Part shown: positions 18,333 through 33,291 of the stretch, one piece after another | Position numbering within the stretch: position 1 is the first letter of the stretch | Layout: every line of letters starts with the position of its first letter | Assembly (NCBI RefSeq): GCF_055900595.2 | Contig: NZ_CM148325.1 | Strand: one strand, 5' to 3' | DNA: 64,000 nucleotides | Notes under the pieces: model-generated | What the model was told of the DNA's origin: nothing | What the model saw: only the letters and a program-made list of their open reading frames with translations | The model's database searches: none | Program-made: the position numbers and the translations under genes

Positions 18333-19277
18333 ATGGGTCTTGATAATATAGGTTATGTTGTCAATCGCTTCTCTGGTTGGCCATCAAATGATCCTCTAAA
18401 AACAGATAACGAATCAATGACATCACCCGTGACTGTGCAGGTAATAAAGTTGATTGCCGCCATCCTTGACCCACATCGGATAGTCGTTGGTATCGATACA
18501 CTTTATACAACGCAGCGCAAAACATTTACCTCAGAGGGTCAACAACTCATTGAATCAGCATTGAAAACACTTAATGTGATGAATTTAAATAACCTGGAAA
18601 CAGATCGCGATGAGGAGGGTAACTATCTGGCTTTTGGATATAACGTTGACACTCCTGACAGAATAACCGTTTCTGCTTATAATGAAAAAAAACCTTTCTG
18701 TTATGGCCAATGTCTTTTAATACAGGATGAAGAACCAGATTTATTTAACCTGGTAAAAATTAAAACCTTTGAAGCCAGGCATAATTATGTTTCTAAATTG
18801 ATGAGCGATCCGGAATTTATGTTTAAATTCAGTTATAGCACCCAACAAAATAGATTAGAACCTCATCTTCTGGTTCCCACTTATTTCCCTCTAAAAACAA
18901 ACCAACCGGTTACGCTAGAGGATGTACTGATACTTTATCGTTTCTTTAAAATGAATGGCGATTTTAATATATTAACATCAGATGAATACATGAGTATCAT
19001 GACACCTCTGATGAAGTGTGAGCGTAGTGTCCACGACCATAACAGGTATGTGACGGGCAAAGATGCTCTTCTTCTGGACAATCCTCCGTCTGGTAACCAG
19101 ATATATTTCCATATTTCCCCTGACGAATCAGCAACACTTGTCCTTTATTTTTCAGACAATAACCTTGAATCCTTCGTCTTTGAAAATGATATTCCGAGCC
19201 AGTATCGACATTTCAAAATGTTTACCAATTTAGCACTAGTTATTGATCAGTTAACCGACGCCAATCAAATACTTTAA
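18333..19277 (+). CDS. hypothetical protein (314 aa), AT-rich, no recognisable domain
   Basis: ATG start with GAGG about 10 nt upstream; codon composition visibly more AT-rich than flanking core genes; I recognise no motif. Confidence 0.5.
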   Translation: MGLDNIGYVVNRFSGWPSNDPLKTDNESMTSPVTVQVIKLIAAILDPHRIVVGIDTLYTTQRKTFTSEGQQLIESALKTLNVMNLNNLETDRDEEGNYLAFGYNVDTPDRITVSAYNEKKPFCYGQCLLIQDEEPDLFNLVKIKTFEARHNYVSKLMSDPEFMFKFSYSTQQNRLEPHLLVPTYFPLKTNQPVTLEDVLILYRFFKMNGDFNILTSDEYMSIMTPLMKCERSVHDHNRYVTGKDALLLDNPPSGNQIYFHISPDESATLVLYFSDNNLESFVFENDIPSQYRHFKMFTNLALVIDQLTDANQIL

Positions 19278-19356: not shown

Positions 19357-19779
19357 ATGACCCCATCTCAGCTCTCTTTTAATACTCTTCCTGTCAATGC
19401 AACATGCACTTCAGAGATAACAGTAAACACACAAAAATTCTCTGACATCCTCTACTCAGTGGGGTATTCCCTAAAGGATCTGGCTTATCTGAGCAGATGT
19501 CTTGCATCATTACACCCGACACTCGCCAAAAACATTTATGAAACGGAAAATCTCAGCGATCAAAAATTACTTTATATAGATTGCCGTAGTACAAATGAAA
19601 TCAAGATAAATATCTTTTTTGGTCAGCAACGAGAAGGATTAATTGAAATTAGTTCTGACACAGTCATTTTTTCGATACTGTCTTCATTGATTGACTCAGC
19701 TATTTCTGAACATCGACATCAAATCACCATTAACGATTCAAATAATTCTGAACTATTTTATGAGGATTATACTGATTAA
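19357..19779 (+). CDS. hypothetical small acidic protein (140 aa)
   Basis: ORF 80 bp downstream of the previous ORF on the same strand; AT-rich; acidic C-terminus; no recognisable motif. Confidence 0.45.
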   Translation: MTPSQLSFNTLPVNATCTSEITVNTQKFSDILYSVGYSLKDLAYLSRCLASLHPTLAKNIYETENLSDQKLLYIDCRSTNEIKINIFFGQQREGLIEISSDTVIFSILSSLIDSAISEHRHQITINDSNNSELFYEDYTD

Positions 19780-20321: not shown

Positions 20322-20771
20322 ATGAAGAAAGCAACACTTGTGATTGGCGTTATTGGCGCGGACTGCCATGCAGTAGGCAATAAAGTTCTGGACCGCGTTT
20401 TTAGCAACCATGACTTCAGAGTCATTAATCTGGGCGTAATGGTCAGCCAGGACGAATATATTGATGCTGCCATTGAAACTGGCGCTGACGCGATTGTCGT
20501 CTCCTCTATCTATGGGCATGGCGATATCGATTGTCTGGGCATGCGCGAACGCTGCATCGAGCGTGGGCTGGGTAACATCCTGCTCTATGTGGGCGGTAAC
20601 CTGGTGGTCGGAAAACATGACTTCGCTGACGTGGAAACCAAGTTCAAAGAGATGGGATTTGATCGCGTCTTTTCCCCAAGTCATGACTTAGAAGATGTTT
20701 GTCAGCTGATGGCCCACGATATCAACCAACGTCATGACGTTGATACTCGCATTCTTGAAGAGGCAATCTGA
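20322..20771 (+). CDS. glmS: glutamate mutase sigma (S) subunit, B12-binding
   Basis: [24 protein letters not shown]... aligns with the clostridial GlmS/MutS B12-binding subunit (DxHxxG-type motif in [10 protein letters not shown]); ORF track begins 21 codons earlier. Confidence 0.85.
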
Positions 20772-22159
20772 TGCAAATCGTCTCTGTCGATATTGGATCG
20801 ACGTGGACCAAAGCAGCCCTCTTCACCCGGGAGGGGGACGCGTTAACGTTGGTTAACCACGTTCTGACCCCAACCACCACCCATCATCTGGCGAAGGGGT
20901 TTTTCTCCAGCCTGGACCAGGTGTTAAACGTAGATGATGCCCTCCCCCTGTTAAACAGTGGTGAGGTTGCATTGAAGTATTCCTCCTCTGCCAAAGGTGG
21001 GCTGGCGGTTGCCGCAATGGGATTAGTGCCTTCTATCACTCTGGAAACCGCGAAAGTAACCGCTCACTCTGCGGGTGCTAAAATTGCGCAATATTACGCC
21101 TACAAGCTGAACCGCCGTGATATCCAGGCACTGGAAGAAACGCAGCCCGATATTCTCTTGTTCACCGGCGGCACCGACGGCGGAGAAGAAAGCTACGGAC
21201 TGAATAACGCCCGTGTGCTGGCAGAATCCAAACTCGACTGCGCCATTATTTATGCCGGAAACCGGGATATTCAGGACAAGGTGCAGGAGATCCTCGGGCA
21301 TAAAGACCTGACCATCGTCGACAACGTTCTGCCCGATCTTGACCATCCGAACCCTTTAGCTGCACGCCAGGCTATCTGCGACATATTCCTTAAACGCATC
21401 GTTAAAGGGAAAGGGCTGGATGTCATTGTTGATAAAACAGGCGAAGAACCAATGCCGACACCATGGACGGTCTTTGAACTGGTTAAGGCAATCAGTAACG
21501 TCGATCACAGCTGGAAAGAGTTCATGCTGATCGACATGGGCGGCGCAACCACCGATGTCTATTCCGCCTGTGCCAACACGCTCTCGCCCGACACTGTTTT
21601 ACATGGCGTACCGGAACCCTTCGTAAAACGGACGGTGGAAGGCGATCTGGGAATGCGCGTCTCGGCAATGGTGGTTGGTGAAAGTGCGAAAGAGTTAGTC
21701 AGTGTGAATTTTGCTCAGCAACCCGCACAGTTGGACGCTTTTTATCATTACCTCCGTCATCTAGTCGCTCATCCCGACTACTTACCCGCGAATGCAGATG
21801 AAAAATATTTCGATACCGTCCTGGCCGGACTGTGTGTGGGTTATGCCACCGAAAGACATGCGGGCACCAAAAAAGAGGTCTGCACCTGCGTCGGCAATGT
21901 CGATTTACAGATGGGACGTGACCTGACAACCGTGCGTAAAGTCGTGGGTTCCGGCGGATGGCTCTCGCGTGCCAGTCAGTTCGATATGCATCGCTGGTTG
22001 AAATACCGCGAGTTAAACGACGACGGTAAACGCATTCTCTTACCGACCGAATTTGAATATTACCGCGATTCCCGGGGGCTATTACCACTGCTGGCAAACG
22101 TCGCCAGAGTCGATCCGCTGGCCGCCGCGCGCACCAGTATTCAATGCTTAACCCTATAA
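20771..22159 (+). CDS. glmL: glutamate mutase-associated protein GlmL/MutL
   Basis: 462 aa ORF between the S and E subunit genes, start overlapping the glmS stop; same position and size as clostridial glmL. Confidence 0.75.
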   Translation: MQIVSVDIGSTWTKAALFTREGDALTLVNHVLTPTTTHHLAKGFFSSLDQVLNVDDALPLLNSGEVALKYSSSAKGGLAVAAMGLVPSITLETAKVTAHSAGAKIAQYYAYKLNRRDIQALEETQPDILLFTGGTDGGEESYGLNNARVLAESKLDCAIIYAGNRDIQDKVQEILGHKDLTIVDNVLPDLDHPNPLAARQAICDIFLKRIVKGKGLDVIVDKTGEEPMPTPWTVFELVKAISNVDHSWKEFMLIDMGGATTDVYSACANTLSPDTVLHGVPEPFVKRTVEGDLGMRVSAMVVGESAKELVSVNFAQQPAQLDAFYHYLRHLVAHPDYLPANADEKYFDTVLAGLCVGYATERHAGTKKEVCTCVGNVDLQMGRDLTTVRKVVGSGGWLSRASQFDMHRWLKYRELNDDGKRILLPTEFEYYRDSRGLLPLLANVARVDPLAAARTSIQCLTL

Positions 22160-22177: not shown

Positions 22178-23623
22178 ATGGAACTTCGAAATAAGAAATT
22201 AACCCATGACGAATTCATGACCGAGCGGCAACAGGTATTGAAAACCTGGGAAACCGGCAAGGATGTTGAAAACTTTGAAGATGGCGTTAAATACCAACAA
22301 ACCATTCCTGAGCATAAACGCTTCTCTCTTGCCCTGCTGAAAGCAGACAAGGAAGGTAAAACCCTTAGCCAACCGCGCGCAGGCGTGGCGCTGATGGACG
22401 AACACATCGAACTACTGAAAACACTACAAGAAGAGTGCGATCTGCTGCCGAGCACTATCGATGCATATACCCGTCTGAATCGGTACGAAGAAGCGGCTGT
22501 AGGGATTAAAAAATCCATCGAAGCCAGAACCTCTAAACTGAACGGTTTACCGGTAGTTAACCACGGCGTCGCAGCTTGCCGTCGCCTCACCGAAACTCTG
22601 CAAAAACCGCTACAGATCCGCCACGGCACGCCAGATGCGCGTCTGCTGGCTGAAATCTCGATGGCCAGCGGCTTTACCAGTTATGAAGGCGGCGGCATTT
22701 CCTACAATATTCCGTATGCCAAGCGCGTAACGCTGGAAAAATCGATCCGCGACTGGCAGTACTGCGATCGTTTAATGGGGATGTACGAAGAACACGGGAT
22801 CCGCATCAACCCCGAACCGTTTGGCCCACTAACGGGTACGCTGATCCCGCCGTTTATCTCGCACTCTATCGCAATAATCGAAGGCTTGCTGGCACTGGAA
22901 CAGGGTGTGAAGTCTATCACCGTTGGTTATGGTCAGGTCGGTAGCCTGACGCAGGATGTTGCGGCGATCCAGTCTCTGCGGGAACTTGCACACGAATACT
23001 TTCAGAGCTATGGCTATACCGACTACGAATTAAGTACCGTGTTTCACCAGTGGATGGGCGGCTTTCCGGAAGACGAATCGAAAGCGTTCGCCATTATCTC
23101 CTGGGGTGCTGCCGTCGCGGGGATGTCTGGTGCTACCAAAGTCATCACCAAAAGTCCGCACGAAGCCTGGGGCATCCCGACTGCTGCTGCCAACATTCAG
23201 GGGCTAAAAGCCTCCCGCCAGATGCTCAACATGGTCAACGAGCAGAAATTCCCGCCGTGCCCGGCGGTTGAACTAGAAATTGAACTGATTAAGAGCGAGG
23301 TTCGCGCGGTACTGAACAAAGTGTTCGAACTGGGTAATGGTGATATTGCGCGCGGTACGGTGCTGGCATTTGAAGCGGGCGTACTGGATGTGCCGTTTGC
23401 GCCAGCCGCCTGCAACGCAGGCAAAATTCTTCCGGTCCGTGACAACACTGGCGCGATTCGCGTACTGGAGGCCGGAGCCGTTCCATTGCCAAAAGATATT
23501 CTCGACCTCCACCACGATTACGTTGCTGAACGCGCGCGCTTTGAAGGACGCCAACCGACATTCCAGATGGTTGTAGATGACATCAATGCTGTATCCCACA
23601 GTAAATTAATAGGAAGACCATAA
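22178..23623 (+). CDS. glmE: glutamate mutase epsilon (E) subunit
   Basis: 481 aa ORF, size and position matching clostridial GlmE; flanked by glmS/glmL and methylaspartase. Confidence 0.85.
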   Translation: MELRNKKLTHDEFMTERQQVLKTWETGKDVENFEDGVKYQQTIPEHKRFSLALLKADKEGKTLSQPRAGVALMDEHIELLKTLQEECDLLPSTIDAYTRLNRYEEAAVGIKKSIEARTSKLNGLPVVNHGVAACRRLTETLQKPLQIRHGTPDARLLAEISMASGFTSYEGGGISYNIPYAKRVTLEKSIRDWQYCDRLMGMYEEHGIRINPEPFGPLTGTLIPPFISHSIAIIEGLLALEQGVKSITVGYGQVGSLTQDVAAIQSLRELAHEYFQSYGYTDYELSTVFHQWMGGFPEDESKAFAIISWGAAVAGMSGATKVITKSPHEAWGIPTAAANIQGLKASRQMLNMVNEQKFPPCPAVELEIELIKSEVRAVLNKVFELGNGDIARGTVLAFEAGVLDVPFAPAACNAGKILPVRDNTGAIRVLEAGAVPLPKDILDLHHDYVAERARFEGRQPTFQMVVDDINAVSHSKLIGRP

Positions 23624-24864
23624 TGAAAATAAAACAGGCCCTTTTTACCGCTGGCTACTCCTCATTCTATTTCGATGATCAGCAGGCGATAAAAAACGGA
23701 GCGGGTCACGACGGTTTTTTTTATACCGGGGAGCCAGTAACACAGGGGTTTAACGCCGTACGTCAGGCCGGGGAGTGCGTTTCGGTTCAGTTGATTCTGG
23801 AAAACGGTGCGGTCGCCGTAGGCGACTGTGCTGCCGTACAGTATTCCGGGGCAGGTGGTCGCGATCCACTGTTCCTCGCAGAGCACTTTATTCCGTTCCT
23901 CAACGACCATATCAAGCCATTACTGGTAGGCCGCGATGTGGATGCTTTCCTGCCGAATGCCCGTTTCTTCGACAAATTGCGTATTGACGGCAACTTGCTA
24001 CATACCGCCGTGCGCTACGGATTATCACAGGCGCTGCTTGATGCTACCGCGCTGGCAACCGGCCGTCTGAAAACTGAAGTGGTCTGTGATGAATGGCAGT
24101 TGCCACGCGTGGCGGAATCCATTCCATTATTTGGTCAGAGCGGCGACGATCGATATATCGCTGTCGATAAGATGATCCTTAAGGGCATCGACGTGCTGCC
24201 CCATGCGCTGATTAATAACGTCGAAGAGAAACTGGGCTTTAAAGGTGAAAAACTGCGCGAATATGTCCGCTGGCTGTCGGATCGCATTCTGAGCAAGCGC
24301 ACCAGCGCACGCTACCACCCTACCCTGCACATCGATGTATACGGCACTATTGGTCTGATCTTCGATATGGATCCGCTTCGCTGTGCGCAATACATCGCCA
24401 GTCTGGAAAAAGAGGCGCAAGGCCTGCCGCTCTACATTGAGGGGCCGGTCGATGCCGGTAACAAGCCCGATCAAATCCGCCTGCTGACCGCGATTACCAA
24501 AGAGCTGACGCGCCTCGGTTCCGGCGTGAAAATCGTGGCCGATGAATGGTGTAACACCTACCAGGATATTGTTGATTTCACTGATGCCGCCAGTTGCCAC
24601 ATGGTGCAAATCAAAACCCCGGATCTGGGCAGTATTCACAACATCGTCGATGCAGTTCTTTATTGCAACAGCCACAGCATGGAAGCGTACCAGGGCGGCA
24701 CCTGCAATGAAACTGATGTCAGTGCCCGCACCTGTGTCCACGTCGCCCTTGCTGCTCGCCCCATGCGTATGCTGGTAAAACCAGGGATGGGCTTTGACGA
24801 AGGCCTCGATATCGTCTTCAACGAAATGAATCGTACTATCGCGCTGTTGCAGGCTAAGGATTAA
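23623..24864 (+). CDS. mal: 3-methylaspartate ammonia-lyase (methylaspartase)
   Basis: 413 aa enolase-superfamily-like ORF; start overlaps the glmE stop (TAATG). Confidence 0.85.
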   Translation: MKIKQALFTAGYSSFYFDDQQAIKNGAGHDGFFYTGEPVTQGFNAVRQAGECVSVQLILENGAVAVGDCAAVQYSGAGGRDPLFLAEHFIPFLNDHIKPLLVGRDVDAFLPNARFFDKLRIDGNLLHTAVRYGLSQALLDATALATGRLKTEVVCDEWQLPRVAESIPLFGQSGDDRYIAVDKMILKGIDVLPHALINNVEEKLGFKGEKLREYVRWLSDRILSKRTSARYHPTLHIDVYGTIGLIFDMDPLRCAQYIASLEKEAQGLPLYIEGPVDAGNKPDQIRLLTAITKELTRLGSGVKIVADEWCNTYQDIVDFTDAASCHMVQIKTPDLGSIHNIVDAVLYCNSHSMEAYQGGTCNETDVSARTCVHVALAARPMRMLVKPGMGFDEGLDIVFNEMNRTIALLQAKD

Positions 24865-24867
24865 CAA

Positions 24868-26238
24868 ATGGCTCGTTCTTTTAAAGTCTTATCGCCAACG
24901 GCAATCCTCGGGTATGGATTCCCGGAAGAGAGCTTCCGCAAAGCGATGGCAGAATCGCCCGATCTGATCGCCGTTGATGCAGGCTCTTCCGATCCTGGCC
25001 CCCACTACCTCGGGGCGGGCAAACCGTTTACCGATCGCGCAGGGGTCAAGCGCGATCTACGCTATATGATCACCGCAGGCGTGCAAAATAATATACCGGT
25101 AGTGATCGGAACGGCCGGCGGTTCTGGTGCCGCTCCACACCTGGAGTGGTGCCGAGAAATAATTCATGAGATTGCCCGGGAAGAGCACCTCGCGTTCTCG
25201 ATGGCGCTGATCCCGGCAGACGTTGACAAAGCCATCGTCCACCAGGCGCTGGATAACGGCAAAATCACGGCGCTGGATTTTGTCCCGCCGTTAACCCACG
25301 ACGCGATTGACGAAAGTACGTATATCGTCGCGCAAATGGGCATCGAACCCTTCCAGCAGGCGCTGAAAGAAGGCGCGCAAGTGGTGCTGGGCGGGCGCGC
25401 TTACGACCCGGCCTGCTTTGCTGCGCTACCGATCATGCAAGGCTTTGATGAAGGTCTGGCGCTGCATTGTGGGAAAATCCTTGAATGCGCGGCAATCGCC
25501 GCAACGCCCGGCTCAGGCTCTGACTGTGCGATGGGCATCATTGATGACAACGGCTTTACGCTGAAGACATTTAATCCGAAGCGTAAATTTACCGAAACGT
25601 CAGCGGCTGCACACACACTGTATGAGAAATCCGATCCCTACTTTCTGCCAGGACCTGGCGGCGTGCTAAACCTGAAAGGTTGCACATTTAAAGCGATCAA
25701 TGATGGCGAAGTTTACGTCAGCGGTTCTAAGCATGAAGAAACGCCCTATGCCCTGAAACTGGAAGGTGCGCGGCGGGTGGGTTTCCGCTGTTTGACCATC
25801 GCCGGAACGCGCGACCCGATCATGATCGCCGGGATCGATAACATCATCGATGAAGTCAAAACCAGCGTTTCGCGTAATCTGTCCTTAGACGATGACAGCA
25901 TTCGCATCAATTTCCACCTGTACGGCAAAAACGGGGTGATGGGCGACCATGAACCGATGCAAACTGCCGGGCATGAGCTGGGGATTGTCCTTGATGTAGT
26001 TGCACCGACCCAGGATATTGCCAATAGCGTTTGCTCGCTGGTGCGCTCTACCATGCTGCACTACGGCTATGAAAACCGCATCGCTACCGCAGGCAACCTG
26101 GCGTTCCCGTTCTCCCCTTCTGATATCCAGGGCGGGCCGGTATACGAATTTTCCATATATCACCTGATTGAAGCCAACGACGCTCTGCGTTTTGATTTCC
26201 ATATTGAACAGGTGACGCCAGAAGGAGTTCAGGCATGA
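24868..26238 (+). CDS. uncharacterised protein, possibly DUF1446 (AtuA-like) family
   Basis: 456 aa ORF 3 nt after mal; the family assignment is from memory of the DUF1446/DUF4387 gene pairing and is unverified. Confidence 0.55.
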   Translation: MARSFKVLSPTAILGYGFPEESFRKAMAESPDLIAVDAGSSDPGPHYLGAGKPFTDRAGVKRDLRYMITAGVQNNIPVVIGTAGGSGAAPHLEWCREIIHEIAREEHLAFSMALIPADVDKAIVHQALDNGKITALDFVPPLTHDAIDESTYIVAQMGIEPFQQALKEGAQVVLGGRAYDPACFAALPIMQGFDEGLALHCGKILECAAIAATPGSGSDCAMGIIDDNGFTLKTFNPKRKFTETSAAAHTLYEKSDPYFLPGPGGVLNLKGCTFKAINDGEVYVSGSKHEETPYALKLEGARRVGFRCLTIAGTRDPIMIAGIDNIIDEVKTSVSRNLSLDDDSIRINFHLYGKNGVMGDHEPMQTAGHELGIVLDVVAPTQDIANSVCSLVRSTMLHYGYENRIATAGNLAFPFSPSDIQGGPVYEFSIYHLIEANDALRFDFHIEQVTPEGVQA

Positions 26239-26552
26239 AACAGTCAATTGTCTCACTGGCGCAAGTCATTCGTTCGAAAAATGCCGGACCTTACGAACTG
26301 GTTTTAGATATTTTATTTAAAACCAAAGAAAACTATGAGCGAGTAAAATCATCAGGGCAATTAACCCCAGAACTGATTGCGCGCTTATATCATGTTGAAC
26401 CTGACTTTATTCATCGTATTGTCTGGTTTGATCCTTCTAACGCAGTAAAAATTGTCATGCCACGAGATATTATCTCCGGGAATGTAGGTGACAATGATGT
26501 CTATGGCGCACAGCAACATGCACCTTTATTAAATATGAGTTTCGATTTGTAA
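26235..26552 (+). CDS. uncharacterised small protein, possibly DUF4387 family
   Basis: 105 aa ORF whose ATG overlaps the upstream stop (ATGA); contains an RSKNAGP-like segment I associate with DUF4387. Confidence 0.5.
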   Translation: MKQSIVSLAQVIRSKNAGPYELVLDILFKTKENYERVKSSGQLTPELIARLYHVEPDFIHRIVWFDPSNAVKIVMPRDIISGNVGDNDVYGAQQHAPLLNMSFDL

Positions 26553-26712
26553 AAATCCGAACACTTTTAGCCAACTGACATCCCGTCACTTATTGCAGCT
26601 CAACACTTCAGCTATTTGTAAGGTTGTTATAGCAGGTAGATGCCTGAATCTCTATTCAGGCATCCACTTCTCCTGATTCTGATTTATCGCCGTGCACCTG
26701 ATGGAGGAAAAA

Positions 26713-27993
26713 ATGAAGAAAATAAGTTTAACCACGATGATTCTTTTGGCGCTGGTACTTGGAATGATTATCGGCGTAGTGCTCAATAACACTGCTTCAC
26801 CGGAAACAGCAAAACTCTATGCGCAAGAAATATCGATATTCACGACGATTTTCTTACGACTGATAAAAATGATTATCGCTCCGTTAGTGGTCTCTACCCT
26901 GGTGGTAGGTATTGCTAAAATGGGCGATGCCAAAGCCCTTGGTCGTATTTTTTCTAAAACACTCTTTTTATTTATTTGCGCCTCATTGCTGTCAATTGCC
27001 TTAGGCTTGATAACGGTAAATTTCTTCATGCCAGGCACAGGAATTAATTTTGTTGCACACGGTGCCGAAACCACCGGAGTGGTCGCGTCAGAACCCTTTA
27101 CACTAAAAGTATTTATTTCGCATGCTTTCCCCACCAGCATTGTCGATGCCATGGCGCACAATGAAATTTTGCAAATCGTGGTGTTCTCAATTTTCCTCGG
27201 CTGTAGCCTGACGGCGATTGGTGAGAAAGGCAGCGCCATCGTTCACGCCTTAGATTCGCTGGCACATGCCATGTTAAAGCTCACTGGCTACGTCATGCTC
27301 TTCGCTCCCCTGACCGTATTCGCCGCTATTTCAGCATTGATTGCTGAACGAGGACTGGCAGTTATGGTGAGCGCCGGGATCTTTATGGGTGAATTTTATT
27401 TCACCATGTTATTACTTTGGGTGCTGCTTATCGGTCTGGCCATCGTTTATGTCGGCCCCTGCATCAGACGCCTGACCCGCGCCCTTTCTGAACCCGCCCT
27501 GCTGGCATTTACCACATCCAGTTCTGAAGCTGCTTTTCCGGGAACGCTTGAAAAACTGGAGCAATTTGGCGTTTCCCCCAAAATTGCCAGCTTTGTCTTA
27601 CCCATTGGCTACTCATTTAATCTCGTTGGATCAATGGCCTACTGCTCCTTCGCCACAGTTTTCATCGCCCAGGCCTGCAATATCCATTTATCCATCGGTG
27701 AGCAAATCACCATGCTGTTGATCCTGATGTTGACCTCGAAAGGAATGGCTGGCGTACCACGCGCCTCAATGGTGGTTATCGCCGCCACGCTCAACCAGTT
27801 CAATATTCCGGAAGCGGGGCTGATCTTGCTGATGGGCGTTGATCCGTTCCTTGATATGGGGCGTTCCGCGACAAACGTCATGAGCAACGCAATGGGCGCT
27901 GCGATGGTGAGTCGGTGGGAAGGCGAACATTTCGGCGAGGGTTGTCGGGGTAAAGCATTAAAACCCAATGAATCGAACGTTGCTCTGCCCTGA
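26713..27993 (+). CDS. dicarboxylate/amino acid:cation symporter (GltP-like)
   Basis: Start placed at MKKISLT with GGAGG 5 nt upstream; polytopic; conserved DAACS segments (IKMIIAPLVVSTLVVGIA, SSSEAAFP, PIGYSFNLVGS) resemble GltP. Confidence 0.8.
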   Translation: MKKISLTTMILLALVLGMIIGVVLNNTASPETAKLYAQEISIFTTIFLRLIKMIIAPLVVSTLVVGIAKMGDAKALGRIFSKTLFLFICASLLSIALGLITVNFFMPGTGINFVAHGAETTGVVASEPFTLKVFISHAFPTSIVDAMAHNEILQIVVFSIFLGCSLTAIGEKGSAIVHALDSLAHAMLKLTGYVMLFAPLTVFAAISALIAERGLAVMVSAGIFMGEFYFTMLLLWVLLIGLAIVYVGPCIRRLTRALSEPALLAFTTSSSEAAFPGTLEKLEQFGVSPKIASFVLPIGYSFNLVGSMAYCSFATVFIAQACNIHLSIGEQITMLLILMLTSKGMAGVPRASMVVIAATLNQFNIPEAGLILLMGVDPFLDMGRSATNVMSNAMGAAMVSRWEGEHFGEGCRGKALKPNESNVALP

Positions 27994-28100: not shown

Positions 28101-29753
28101 ATGTCCAAACCATTTATCTGGCAAGAACCGTTTCTACAAAATAAAGACGGTACAGAATATACATTAATTAGCGATCAACATATTACAGTAACGGAATTAG
28201 ACGGCGAAGAAGTAATAAAAATCGCTCCTGAAGCATTAACGCTGCTTGCCCGGCAGGCATTTTATGAAGCCTCTTTTTTCTTACGTTCCGCTCATTTGCA
28301 ACAGGTCGCCAGCATTCTTAACGATCCGCAGGCCAGCAGTAATGATAAATACGTTGCGTTGCAGTTATTACGTAATGCTGAAGTCTCAGCAAAAGGGGTA
28401 TTACCCAACTGTCAGGATACCGGCACCGCAACTATTGTTGCCAGTAAAGGGCAACAGATATGGACGGGAGGTAACGACGCTGAAGCCTTAAGCAAAGGCA
28501 TTTACAGTACTTTCCAGGAAAATAATCTGCGCTTTTCACAAAATGCGCCGCTGGATATGTATACCGAAGTCAATACGCAAACCAATCTTCCGGCGCAGAT
28601 TGATATCAGCGCTGTCGCTGGTAATGAGTACCATTTTCTCTGTGTTAATAAAGGGGGCGGCTCCGCCAATAAAGCTGCACTTTATCAGGAAACCAAATCC
28701 TTATTGCAACCAGAAAAACTGACCGCATTTTTAATCGACAAAATGAAATCGTTGGGCACGGCCGCCTGCCCGCCCTACCACATCGCCTTTGTCGTCGGAG
28801 GGCTTTCAGCCGATCAAACCTTAAAAGTTGCCAAGCTGGCCTCTACGAAATATTACGACAATTTGCCCACCAGCGGAAACGAGCAGGGACAAGCATTCCG
28901 TGATATTGAGCTGGAAAAAGCGTTGCTCGAAGCCAGTCAGCAATTTGGTATTGGTGCGCAATTTGGGGGTAAATATTTCGCTCATGATATTCGCGTCATT
29001 CGTCTGCCGCGTCACGGTGGCTCCTGCCCGATAGCTATGGCGCTCTCCTGTTCTGCCGATCGCAATATCAAAGCCAAAATTAACAAGCACGGTATCTGGC
29101 TGGAAAAACTCGAACACAATCCGGGGCAATATATTCCAGCCTCATTGCGGGAAGAAAATCACTCGCTACATGTACACCTGGATCTAAACCGTCCGTTGCG
29201 TGACGTGATGCAGGATCTCGCCAGATTACCGGTAGGTACCCGCGTGTCGTTAAGTGGTCCCATCGTAGTGGCGCGCGATATCGCCCACGCAAAAATAAAA
29301 GCGCGGCTGGATAGCGGCGAATCGATGCCGGATTACCTGAAGCATCATATTGTCTATTACGCTGGCCCGGCGAAAACACCGGAGAACATGGCCTGCGGTT
29401 CACTGGGTCCAACCACGGGCGGTCGAATGGACGGTTATGTCGAAACCTTCCAGGCGGCTGGCGGCAGTCTGGTAATGTTATCGAAAGGTAACCGCAGCCA
29501 GCAGGTCACCGATGCCTGTCACAAACATGGCGGCTTCAATCTGGGAAGTATTGGCGGTGCAGCTGCGTTACTGGCGCAAGAATATGTCAAAAGTCTGCGT
29601 TGCCTGGAATACCCGGAGCTGGGTATGGAGGCGGTGTGGATGATGGAAGTGGAAAATCTGCCCGCATTCATCCTGGTTGATGATAAAGGCAATAATTTCT
29701 TTAGCCAGTTTGAGCAGCAACACCGCTGCGCCAGTTGCCCTGCGGGACATTAA
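28101..29753 (+). CDS. fumD: class I fumarate hydratase paralog, probable mesaconase
   Basis: 550 aa ORF alignable along its length to remembered E. coli FumA ([34 protein letters not shown]); the fumD name follows a published O157:H7 mesaconase description, recalled from memory. Confidence 0.8.
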
Positions 29754-30398: not shown

Positions 30399-31304
30399 TT
30401 ACATCTCCTGCGGTACGACCGATTTCGCCAGCAACCATTCACGAAATTGCTGCAAGTGCGGAGAGTCAGACTTCTCTTCCTGCCACGTCATAATAAAACG
30501 ATTACCGGTACGAATAGGCACATCACAGGGAATCACCATATCGCCACTATCCAAATCATGTTGAATAGCGAACCGTGGTAACAGCGCCACGCCGAGATTA
30601 GAGCGCACGGCGGCAATCAGCATTGAAAGCAAATCGAAACGTGGTCCGTTATTGACCAGCGGACTGCTAACGCCAGATAAAGCAAACCACTCTTCCCAGC
30701 CAGTAATACGGGTGCTTTGATGCAGAAGTGGTAACTCAGTAAGCAGTTCTGCCACTGACAGTTTTTGATCGGACATTGCAAGCAAACTGCCGCTGCATAC
30801 CGGCAAAATCTCCTCTTCAAAGAGATATTCTACTTCCGCCCAGGGCGCGCAAAAATTTTCGCGCATAATGACAGCATCGTACTCCCGATTAAGAAAATCG
30901 CCGTTATTAGCTAAAGAATGAATATTAACAATAATATCGGGATGTAACTTTGTGAATTCATGTAAATTTGGGATTAACCAGTGGGTACTAAAAGTAGGAT
31001 TAACGGCAAGTTCAATAACCTGAACCGTAGGCTGCCATGTCATAATCGTATTGGTATCGCGCTCCAGCTTATTTAATGTTTCTTTTACTATCCCCAGGTA
31101 ATACTTCCCTGCATCATTAAGAAAAATGCGTTTTTTAGAGTGTGAAAATAACGGAGTATGTAAAAATTCCTCCAGCGCACTTACTTGTCTGAATACAGCA
31201 CTTTGGGTTAACGCTAACTCCTCTGCCGCTCTGGTATAACTTTCATGTCGTGCGACGACCTCAAAAGTCACCAGCAGCTCCGTTTTAGGTATTTTTCCTC
31301 GCAT
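30399..31304 (-). CDS. LysR-family transcriptional regulator
   Basis: N-terminal HTH (FEVVARHESYTRAAEELALTQSAVFRQVSALEE) and LysR substrate-binding body; start placed at MRGKIPK (ORF track starts 10 codons earlier). Confidence 0.8.
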   Translation of the reverse strand: MRGKIPKTELLVTFEVVARHESYTRAAEELALTQSAVFRQVSALEEFLHTPLFSHSKKRIFLNDAGKYYLGIVKETLNKLERDTNTIMTWQPTVQVIELAVNPTFSTHWLIPNLHEFTKLHPDIIVNIHSLANNGDFLNREYDAVIMRENFCAPWAEVEYLFEEEILPVCSGSLLAMSDQKLSVAELLTELPLLHQSTRITGWEEWFALSGVSSPLVNNGPRFDLLSMLIAAVRSNLGVALLPRFAIQHDLDSGDMVIPCDVPIRTGNRFIMTWQEEKSDSPHLQQFREWLLAKSVVPQEM

Positions 31305-31893
31305 AATGCCGTCCGTGAAAAAATAACAATTCAAAAATTATTTTATAAAAAACAGTAGCACTAATGAATATCATAATTCAAATAAACAAACCAGTCAGCT
31401 ATATGTCTAACCAGGAAAATAAAGTGACAATAATCCTAAAACAGGAATTTCACCTCAGTTATCCGCATGCAATACTTTAAAGCTATTATTGCAAGAATAT
31501 TATTCATATACATGAATATACTCTAAATAAGTCAAGTTGCAGGAAGGGAACAAATAATGAATATCCAGAAGCTTACATAAGTAAGTGACCTGGGTGAGCG
31601 AACATCGATGCAGCACATGCAACTTGAATTATGACAAGTATACAATGATAAATTTATATACCCTATGTTATATATTATCTATGTCCGGTTAAATTGAATG
31701 AGTCATAGCCTTAAAAGACTTCACAAAAGATAATTCCTCTTTAACAATAAGCCAGATTTACCACTTGTAAAACTTGCTATCGCTGCATACACTACGCGCG
31801 TTTTCTTTCCCTTTTGCTGGCTGCTGACCGGAAAGACAAAATTACCCTCGCAATACAGGGGGTTGATTAACGTCTATATTTCAGGACAGCGTT

Positions 31894-33291
31894 ATGCATC
31901 ATCTTTCAAGGCTTGATAAAGCCTTTCTGCGCAAAGGGATCCAACTTTCCCGCGCCAACAATATTGTTTCATTATGTCGTCCATCAGGAGCCAGTGCCCG
32001 CGTACTGCTGCCGGACGAACTGCCGCTGGAAGAAAAAGCAGTGACACAACTGCTTGATTTTGCAGATGTGAAGCTACCAGACCACCCAGGTTATGTGCGC
32101 CAGACGTGCGCGACGCCAGATTTTCATCCCGGCAATGGCGTCCCCGTTGGCGCGGTGGTGGCCTCAACGCCGGATTTAGTCATTCCCGCCGCCATCGGCA
32201 CCGATATTTCTTGTGGCATGCGGCTGCTGACGACCGGATTAACACTTGAGCAAGCCGAAGCGCATAAAGACGTCATCGCTCAGCGGTTAACGCAAGTGCT
32301 ACTGCAAAATGAGCGCGATGTTCCGTTATCCGCACAGGCGTTCACCGCGCTTTTTGATGGCGGACCGGCAGATTGCATGTCGGCCTTGCCATCAGCAGGT
32401 CTCTGGACACGTACAAATATCCCCCGGATGACGCAAGAGATTGACCGCTGCATTGGGCTTAAAGAGCATAACAGTCATTCGCGTTATGCCCCACCCGCCC
32501 TGCTGGCAACGGACCGCGCATTACTCCGCGATCCTTGTCTTGGTACGCCGGGTTCAGGTAATCATTTTATTGAACTTCAGGTCGTTGATAACGTGGTTGA
32601 TCGCCATGTGGCCTGGCAACAAGGGCTGAAAACAGGCGATATTGTGGTGATGATCCACAGTGGATCACGAGATGTTGGCTTTTACGTCGGAAGACGCTGG
32701 ATGGATCGCGCCCGTGCTGAATGGCCCACCGGACATAAACATCCACAAAGCGGGTTATATGGTCTGGCAGGCGGACTGGCGGAGGAATATCTACAAGCGA
32801 TAGGAATGGCGGCGCGTTACGCGTGGTTAAATCGCGTGACAATTGCCGAAATGGTGCGCGTATGTCTTGCCAATCTCTTTCATCAGGACAATTCGCATCT
32901 GGTGGTGGATGTGCCACATAACATCATCCTTCGCGAGCATGAAATGAATATTCATCGCAAAGGCGCAACACCGGCACGAGTGGGCAATCTGGCGTTAATC
33001 CCCGGTTCAATGGGCGATTATTCGTGGCTTGCGGTTGGTTGCGGCAACCCGGAGTGGCTGTGGTCATGCAGTCACGGAGCAGGACGCAGCCAGCGTCGGC
33101 AGGCCATGCGCTCACGCGCGACTGAAGAGTCAACGCTGCCGTGGCAATGCGTCACATTGCGCGAAGAACGACGTCTTGAAGAAGCGCCAGCGGCTTATAA
33201 AGATATTGGTCCGGTTATCGAAGCTCAACAAGAAGCCGGATTAATTCAGCCAGCGGTCAGATTTCGACCGTGGTTAACGTTTAAAGCATAA
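31894..33291 (+). CDS. RtcB-family RNA ligase paralog
   Basis: 465 aa ORF with RtcB hallmarks (GTDISCGMRLL, GSGNHFIELQ, HSGSRDVG, CSHGAGRS); N-terminus longer than remembered E. coli RtcB, so the start is uncertain. Confidence 0.75.
   Translation: MHHLSRLDKAFLRKGIQLSRANNIVSLCRPSGASARVLLPDELPLEEKAVTQLLDFADVKLPDHPGYVRQTCATPDFHPGNGVPVGAVVASTPDLVIPAAIGTDISCGMRLLTTGLTLEQAEAHKDVIAQRLTQVLLQNERDVPLSAQAFTALFDGGPADCMSALPSAGLWTRTNIPRMTQEIDRCIGLKEHNSHSRYAPPALLATDRALLRDPCLGTPGSGNHFIELQVVDNVVDRHVAWQQGLKTGDIVVMIHSGSRDVGFYVGRRWMDRARAEWPTGHKHPQSGLYGLAGGLAEEYLQAIGMAARYAWLNRVTIAEMVRVCLANLFHQDNSHLVVDVPHNIILREHEMNIHRKGATPARVGNLALIPGSMGDYSWLAVGCGNPEWLWSCSHGAGRSQRRQAMRSRATEESTLPWQCVTLREERRLEEAPAAYKDIGPVIEAQQEAGLIQPAVRFRPWLTFKA

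Follow-up and report, generated by a model that had tools for sequence, protein, structure and literature searches.

Two adjoining genes within a glutamate-fermentation operon of Escherichia coli very probably (roughly 0.88 in our estimate) encode the heteromeric citramalate lyase CmlAB and close the methylaspartate pathway of that operon. The pair, here called cmlA and cmlB, occupies positions 24868–26552 (1685 bp) of a 64,000-nt stretch of E. coli chromosome, which is referred to below as the window. An earlier note on the window, made from its letters, had taken the pair for an undescribed step missing after mesaconase. Orthology to CmlAB bears out the missing citramalate step, but the pair is not undescribed: its identity is already known, as an orthologue has been crystallised, named and used. 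The features of the pair are as follows.

24868..26238, + strand: cmlA, predicted large subunit of citramalate lyase, 456 aa, Pfam AtuA/PF07287; open reading frame (ORF) with ATG start
26235..26552, + strand: cmlB, predicted small subunit of citramalate lyase, 105 aa, Pfam DUF4387/PF14330; ORF with ATG start
26235..26238, + strand: ATGA overlap of the cmlB start and the cmlA stop, read from the sequence
24856..24860, + strand: Shine-Dalgarno-like AAGGA, 7 nt 5′ of the cmlA ATG, read from the sequence
26222..26227, + strand: Shine-Dalgarno-like AAGGAG within the 3′ end of cmlA, 7 nt 5′ of the cmlB ATG, read from the sequence

Both ORFs and their ATGA coupling overlap lie where the earlier note had placed them, and the stop codon of the preceding gene, mal (24862–24864), directly follows the AAGGA of cmlA. 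The 1685-bp region has matches in 1125 of 5426 complete E. coli genomes (95–100% identity), RefSeq annotates it as two coding sequences (‘acyclic terpene utilization AtuA family protein’ and ‘DUF4387 domain-containing protein’), and the A-then-B order is conserved across phyla; cmlAB is therefore not a chance pair of ORFs. Despite the overlap and the constant pairing, the G+C content of cmlB is 38.4%, versus 55.0% for cmlA and 49–53% for the remainder of the operon.

Orthology to a crystallised citramalate lyase

A phmmer search of the PDB aligns CmlA over its entire length (residues 1–456 to 1–456) with chain A of 9ERQ and 9EVF (E 6.5e-293), and CmlB with chain 9erq_B (residues 1–104 to 1–104; E 5.2e-57). 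Identity to the crystallised chains amounts to 420/456 residues (92.1%) for CmlA and 88/104 (84.6%) for CmlB. The depositors named these chains ‘Citramalate lyase, subunit A (cmlA)’ and ‘subunit B (cmlB)’ (release October 2025). Entry 9EVF, released on 2025-10-08, is titled ‘Citramalate lyase - ADP - pyruvate complex’, and the second title in the 9ERQ/9EVF pair is ‘Citramalate lyase - AMPPNP - citramalate complex’ (AMPPNP, adenylyl imidodiphosphate, an ATP analogue that cannot be hydrolysed).

Compared with the crystallised CmlAB (Raoultella planticola/Klebsiella michiganensis), the window proteins differ by 36 substitutions in CmlA and by 16 in CmlB, every one of them at a variable position. 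None of the 36 differences in CmlA falls on the 161 columns that are invariant among 20 orthologues (61–100% identity), and the residues that characterise the clade are retained. The fold is also that of CmlAB: an AlphaFold2 model of window CmlA, with a predicted local distance difference test (pLDDT) score of 85 and a predicted template modelling (pTM) score of 0.84, superposes on both the 9ERQ and the 9EVF structures and reaches a template modelling (TM) score of 0.92 against 9evf_A. A gene of K. michiganensis DSM 25444 (locus L002) encodes a protein 100% identical to the crystallised CmlA and stands in the order glmS–glmL–glmE–mal–cmlA–cmlB–gltP–fumD–cobA–lysR, the same as in the window. 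Because the K. michiganensis protein is identical to that in the crystal and its gene has the same place in the operon, the window genes are positional orthologues of the crystallised enzyme, with which they have in common full-length orthology, an overlapping A-then-B order and operon position.

The activity assigned to the window proteins, cleavage of (S)-citramalate into pyruvate and acetate, is by analogy with the names and ligands of these PDB entries and with the use of the Raoultella genes in vivo. Raoultella cmlAB has been used to convert citramalate to pyruvate and acetate in an E. coli auxotroph for acetyl-coenzyme A (acetyl-CoA), in which growth on mesaconate needs cmlAB and isotope labelling confirms the conversion (bioRxiv 10.64898/2026.01.16.699985). 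The reaction, the two-subunit make-up and the independence of CoA and acyl carrier protein (ACP) have thus been shown or reported; full-text literature searches found no primary paper on the biochemistry of CmlAB.

Operon and genomic context of cmlAB

The genes and signals surrounding cmlAB in the window are as follows.

20322..20771, + strand: glmS, glutamate (methylaspartate) mutase subunit S; NF002612, E 2e-75; start as in RefSeq for an identical locus
20771..22159, + strand: glmL, glutamate mutase accessory protein; TIGR01319, NF040745
22178..23623, + strand: glmE, glutamate mutase subunit E; TIGR01503, E 6.8e-259
23623..24864, + strand: mal, 3-methylaspartate ammonia-lyase, ending 3 nt before cmlA; TIGR01502, E 2.4e-163
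26713..27993, + strand: gltP/dctA-type dicarboxylate/amino acid:cation symporter; NF002461 and NF008440, below equivalog cut-offs; start as in RefSeq
28101..29753, + strand: fumD, class I fumarase/mesaconase, 550 aa, intact; NF011921, 1271.7 bits
29763..30365, + strand: cobA/cobO, corrinoid (cob(I)yrinic acid a,c-diamide) adenosyltransferase; NF004637, TIGR00708
30369..30395, + strand: terminator-like hairpin of 11 pairs, 9 of them G-C, closing the operon; strongest terminator-like match in the scan
30399..31334, − strand: divergent LysR-family regulator, exact start uncertain; GcvA-like LysR matches, kept beside the cluster in Enterobacterales

NCBIfam models confirm each neighbour that the earlier note had named, namely the three glutamate mutase genes, methylaspartase, mesaconase, the glutamate-type symporter and the B12 adenosyltransferase. 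All nine genes from glmS to cobA are intact and their junctions are tight or overlapping. Every other + strand terminator-like match from glmS to cobA has a stem of at most 7 pairs, and most of them lie within coding sequence; the strongest such hairpin comes right after cobA. On this evidence, the nine genes look like a single operon. No match to E. coli K-12 CitC, CitD, CitE, CitF, CitX or CitG is found by tblastn in the whole window, so the operon is without a classical citramalate or citrate lyase, in line with the absence of a citramalate lyase among the genes to which the earlier note could assign a function. Neither are there atu-type genes beside cmlAB, the neighbours being glmSLE, mal, gltP, fumD, cobA and lysR.

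Within the 160-nt spacer between cmlB and gltP there is a perfect 11-bp inverted repeat, GATGCCTGAAT-CTCT-ATTCAGGCATC (26639–26664), which no U-tract follows. Taken over its full length, the spacer shows no more stable folding than shuffled sequence does (z -1.12). The hairpin could be an mRNA-stabilising or processing element that sets the enzyme genes apart from the transporter gene.

The cluster was previously described in E. coli O157:H7, and the FumD of that strain was found to act as a mesaconase (Kronen and Berg, PLoS One 2015; PMC4682846). In that study, citrate lyase, isocitrate lyase and methylisocitrate lyase of this strain were without citramalate lyase activity, the DUF1446 gene adjoining mal was flagged, and the fate of citramalate was unknown at the time (PMC4682846).

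Relatives of CmlA were collected in one scan of GTDB species representatives, which yielded at least 583, and the best 80 (57–92% identity) were taken with 10-kb flanks. Context was counted by tblastn with the window proteins, the denominators being the loci with sufficient flank. Since these 80 loci are the closest relatives, the figures hold for the CmlA clade and do not extend to the AtuA family at large. The loci span Enterobacterales, Rhodocyclales, Riflebacteria, Aminicenantes, Spirochaetes, Lentisphaerae, Bacillota, Planctomycetota, Myxococcota, Shewanella and Desulfobacterales. The pairing of A with B is obligatory in this sample: cmlB stands immediately 3′ of cmlA in 77/77 loci, with the 4-nt ATGA overlap in 41 of 78 and gaps of at most 22 nt in most others. 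Synteny with the methylaspartate genes is likewise conserved, in that mal lies immediately 5′ of cmlA in 67/72 loci and a class I fumarase gene lies 3′ of it in 37/60. Genes for glutamate mutase, whose co-occurrence with the pair would follow from the earlier note's reading, are near cmlA in most loci (glmS in 56/63, glmE in 56/63). Homologues of CitC, CitD, CitE, CitF, CitX or CitG occur within 10 kb on either side of cmlA in none of the 80. CmlAB and CitDEF thus emerge from the survey as alternative ways of carrying out one step. The arrangement extends to Prevotella nigrescens, where a CmlA of 54% identity is encoded in the order glmS–glmL–glmE–mal–cmlA–cmlB–hypothetical gene–fumarase α/β. 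Besides E. coli, carriers of the cluster include many Citrobacter, Klebsiella/Raoultella, Salmonella arizonae, Yersinia, Morganella and Hafnia, as well as anaerobes of at least eight other phyla.

These data also bear on whether the cluster serves glutamate fermentation in E. coli. It is improbable, in our view, that the citramalate lyase fold and activity are real but that the E. coli cluster is cryptic or otherwise used, being silent or acting on citramalate or mesaconate from another source. Such a reading can draw on E. coli O157:H7, for which no conditions for expression of the cluster were found and no anaerobic growth on glutamate was obtained (PMC4682846), and on the accessory distribution of the cluster, which is present in the 1125 E. 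coli genomes counted above. It can also draw on E. coli E200086 (locus L001, 12234–14663), whose cmlAB is 100% identical to that of the window and whose fumD is interrupted by an IS1A insertion; some lineages are thus inactivating the pathway. Finally, cmlAB stands alone at five loci, three in Shewanella and one each in Accumulibacter and Desulfospira. The neighbours are uninformative both at a Shewanella locus (L061: hrpA, an M4 protease gene and fadE) and at that of Desulfospira (L063: corrinoid methyltransferases, a histidine kinase and a resistance-nodulation-division (RND) efflux system). Against this, none of the nine window genes is broken, their junctions are tight or overlapping, and the strongest hairpin comes after cobA. 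The glm/mal synteny also reaches from Enterobacterales to Bacteroidota, Riflebacteria and Bacillota, a conservation that points to selection as a single pathway.

Outside the operon, two ORFs of low G+C content (35–37.5%; 314 and 140 aa) lie on the + strand between cydA and glmS (18333–19277 and 19357–19779). Both are hypothetical proteins in RefSeq; their composition is foreign-looking, and they may mark the edge of an island that carries the glm cluster. On the other side, between the LysR regulator gene of the cluster and sucD, is a gene for an RtcB-family RNA ligase of 465 aa (31894–33291, + strand). In K-12, the sucCD–cydAB interval presumably carries mngR–mngAB in place of this segment, so that the whole segment looks like a replacement island.

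Comparison with CitDEF and the AtuA/DUF4387 family

CmlAB has the same net reaction and the same last position in the pathway as the classical CitDEF enzyme of clostridia and E. coli (EC 4.1.3.22/4.1.3.6; PMC4682846). However, CitDEF has three subunits, including an ACP, and operates a thioester cycle, whereas CmlAB has two subunits and no ACP, and an adenine nucleotide is present in its crystals. No homology to CitF, CitE or CitD is detected: blastp of CmlA and CmlB against E. coli CitC, CitD, CitE, CitF, CitX and CitG gives no match better than E 0.48. Linked citC, citX or citG genes are also absent, both from the window and within 10 kb of cmlA in the 80 orthologous loci.

Enzymes of the isocitrate lyase/phosphoenolpyruvate (PEP) mutase superfamily, such as 2,3-dimethylmalate lyase, cleave C–C bonds of hydroxy-dicarboxylates without CoA, yielding a 2-oxo acid or glyoxylate and a free carboxylic acid. 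This CoA-independent type of cleavage is common to them and CmlAB, but CmlA shows no fold similarity to the triosephosphate isomerase (TIM) barrel of the isocitrate lyase type. A first impression from the secondary-structure string, that the N-terminal domain of CmlA is a (βα)8 TIM-barrel aldolase, was not supported by fold searches. The CmlA fold has no close solved structural relative, and its resemblance to kinases is only a hint.

CmlA carries three invariant glycine-rich loops, D42-P-G-P-x-Y-L-G-x-G-K52, G81-x-x-G-G-x-G-A-x-x-H91 and P214-G-S-G-x-D-C220, which are candidate ligand-binding elements. Loops D42–K52 and P214–C220 have low model confidence and are altered or lost in fungal fusion proteins of the family, a change that would be in keeping with an influence on substrate specificity.

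In Pfam, CmlB matches DUF4387 (PF14330; E 2.9e-39) and CmlA matches AtuA (PF07287, formerly DUF1446), weakly and over residues 63–392 (E 1.2e-18); this hidden Markov model search confirms the DUF1446/DUF4387 assignment that the earlier note had tentatively offered. No NCBIfam model matches either protein. PF07287 is common to CmlA and to AtuA of acyclic terpene utilisation, which has tentatively been assigned as a lyase that cleaves a tertiary β-hydroxy acid into a ketone and free acetate, the same type of reaction as the cleavage of citramalate (PMC4847356). The two systems differ in substrate, which is a CoA ester for AtuA and a free dicarboxylate for CmlAB, and in context, which for the former is the atuABCDEFGH cluster, with genes for geranyl-CoA carboxylase, an acyl-CoA dehydrogenase and a hydratase, and for the latter is glm/mal. 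That the window pair is itself an AtuA-type lyase acting on a hydroxy-acyl-CoA ester, as the Pfam placement, the RefSeq name and the tentative lyase assignment (PMC4847356) might suggest, is highly unlikely: the Pfam match is weak and partial, no atu genes flank the pair, a near-identical orthologue has been crystallised with citramalate and pyruvate, and linkage to mal is seen in 67 of 72 loci. In addition, more distant AtuA/DUF4387 pairs (42–56% identity) are found in different contexts, which suggests that substrate specificity depends on the clade.

One such pair, of 42% identity, lies beside a flavin monooxygenase system in Methylobacterium. Another, 55.8% identical to CmlA, is an AtuA-like/DUF4387 paralogue on the IncFIB/IncHI1B plasmid NZ_CP138807.1 of Klebsiella pneumoniae (locus L083, 7989–16048), where it belongs to a LysR-controlled cluster that also encodes a fumarate hydratase and several dehydrogenases (two for aldehydes, one for succinate semialdehyde, one for alcohol and a short-chain dehydrogenase/reductase, SDR). 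The paralogue cluster is found on about a dozen Klebsiella plasmids and may be a hydratase-plus-lyase module for another substrate.

Distant members of the family are 31–43% identical to CmlA. DUF4387 sequences form 1162 clusters at 50% identity (E ≤1e-3); most are stand-alone proteins of about 100–110 aa, and some are C-terminal domains of proteins of about 530–735 aa. In two of these fusions, which are fungal or fungal-like and have AtuA and DUF4387 as their precomputed Pfam domains, the N-terminal part aligns with full-length CmlA (37–40% identity). Such natural AtuA–DUF4387 fusions (about 600–670 aa) support a physical complex of A and B.

Several public records (P0002, P0060, P0072 and P0258) label CmlA homologues ‘3-methylaspartate ammonia-lyase’, among them a fungal AtuA–DUF4387 fusion. 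This label has no known basis; the misannotation was pointed out in 2015 (PMC4682846) and is still spreading. The label and the position of cmlA, which abuts mal in 67/72 loci, are what could make the pair an accessory factor of glutamate mutase or methylaspartase (a second methylaspartate ammonia-lyase or a reactivase) instead of a downstream enzyme, a proposition with next to no chance given that Kronen and Berg saw no ground for the label (PMC4682846), that NCBIfam and Pfam show no similarity of the pair to methylaspartase (enolase superfamily), that GlmL already has the accessory role, that the PDB ligands are citramalate and pyruvate, and that the function is reported without glm or mal, in an E. 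coli strain given only cmlAB for the use of mesaconate (bioRxiv 10.64898/2026.01.16.699985).

Proposed pathway, mechanism and significance

With CmlAB as citramalate lyase, the operon would convert glutamate to 3-methylaspartate by GlmSE with the aid of GlmL and CobA, 3-methylaspartate to mesaconate by Mal, and mesaconate to (S)-citramalate by FumD. CmlAB would then split (S)-citramalate into pyruvate and acetate without a CoA thioester or an ACP prosthetic group. The two subunits would be made in a fixed proportion through translational coupling and would work as one complex.

As AMPPNP with citramalate and ADP with pyruvate are found in the crystals, to judge from the titles of the PDB entries, an adenine nucleotide probably takes part in catalysis by CmlAB; a purely structural or allosteric role of the nucleotide is possible. 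In the mechanism considered here, the C4 carboxylate of citramalate would be transiently phosphorylated, and the leaving acetate unit would be an activated acyl phosphate, with a stabilising effect on the acetate carbanion much like that of the thioester in CitDEF. The specific form of this idea is speculative and, on balance, rather doubtful: CmlAB may use ATP chemically, cleaving citramalyl phosphate into pyruvate and acetyl phosphate (or returning the phosphate to ADP in situ), so that an acyl-phosphate cycle would replace the thioester/ACP cycle, with the same logic across the AtuA/DUF4387 family. If this is true, the family would be one of nucleotide-assisted lyases that free acetate from tertiary β-hydroxy acids, and would cover the AtuA of Pseudomonas, the fusions in fungi and the Klebsiella plasmid paralogue with its neighbouring dehydrogenase and fumarate hydratase genes.

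In practice, the result chiefly calls for an update of annotation, as the labels in RefSeq/PGAP, Pfam and NCBIfam (‘AtuA family’, ‘DUF4387’) lag behind; the synteny statistics given above could calibrate an equivalog model for CmlA and CmlB. CmlAB is also a compact, CoA-independent module of two genes that is already in use in synthetic pathways (bioRxiv 10.64898/2026.01.16.699985). For the biology of the enterobacteria that possess glutamate mutase, methylaspartase and mesaconase, the pair very probably closes the gap left in 2015, namely how citramalate is disposed of without CitDEF. About one-fifth of complete E. coli genomes, together with the other carriers, have the cluster and would thereby possess every step of a methylaspartate route that leads from glutamate to pyruvate, acetate and ammonia.

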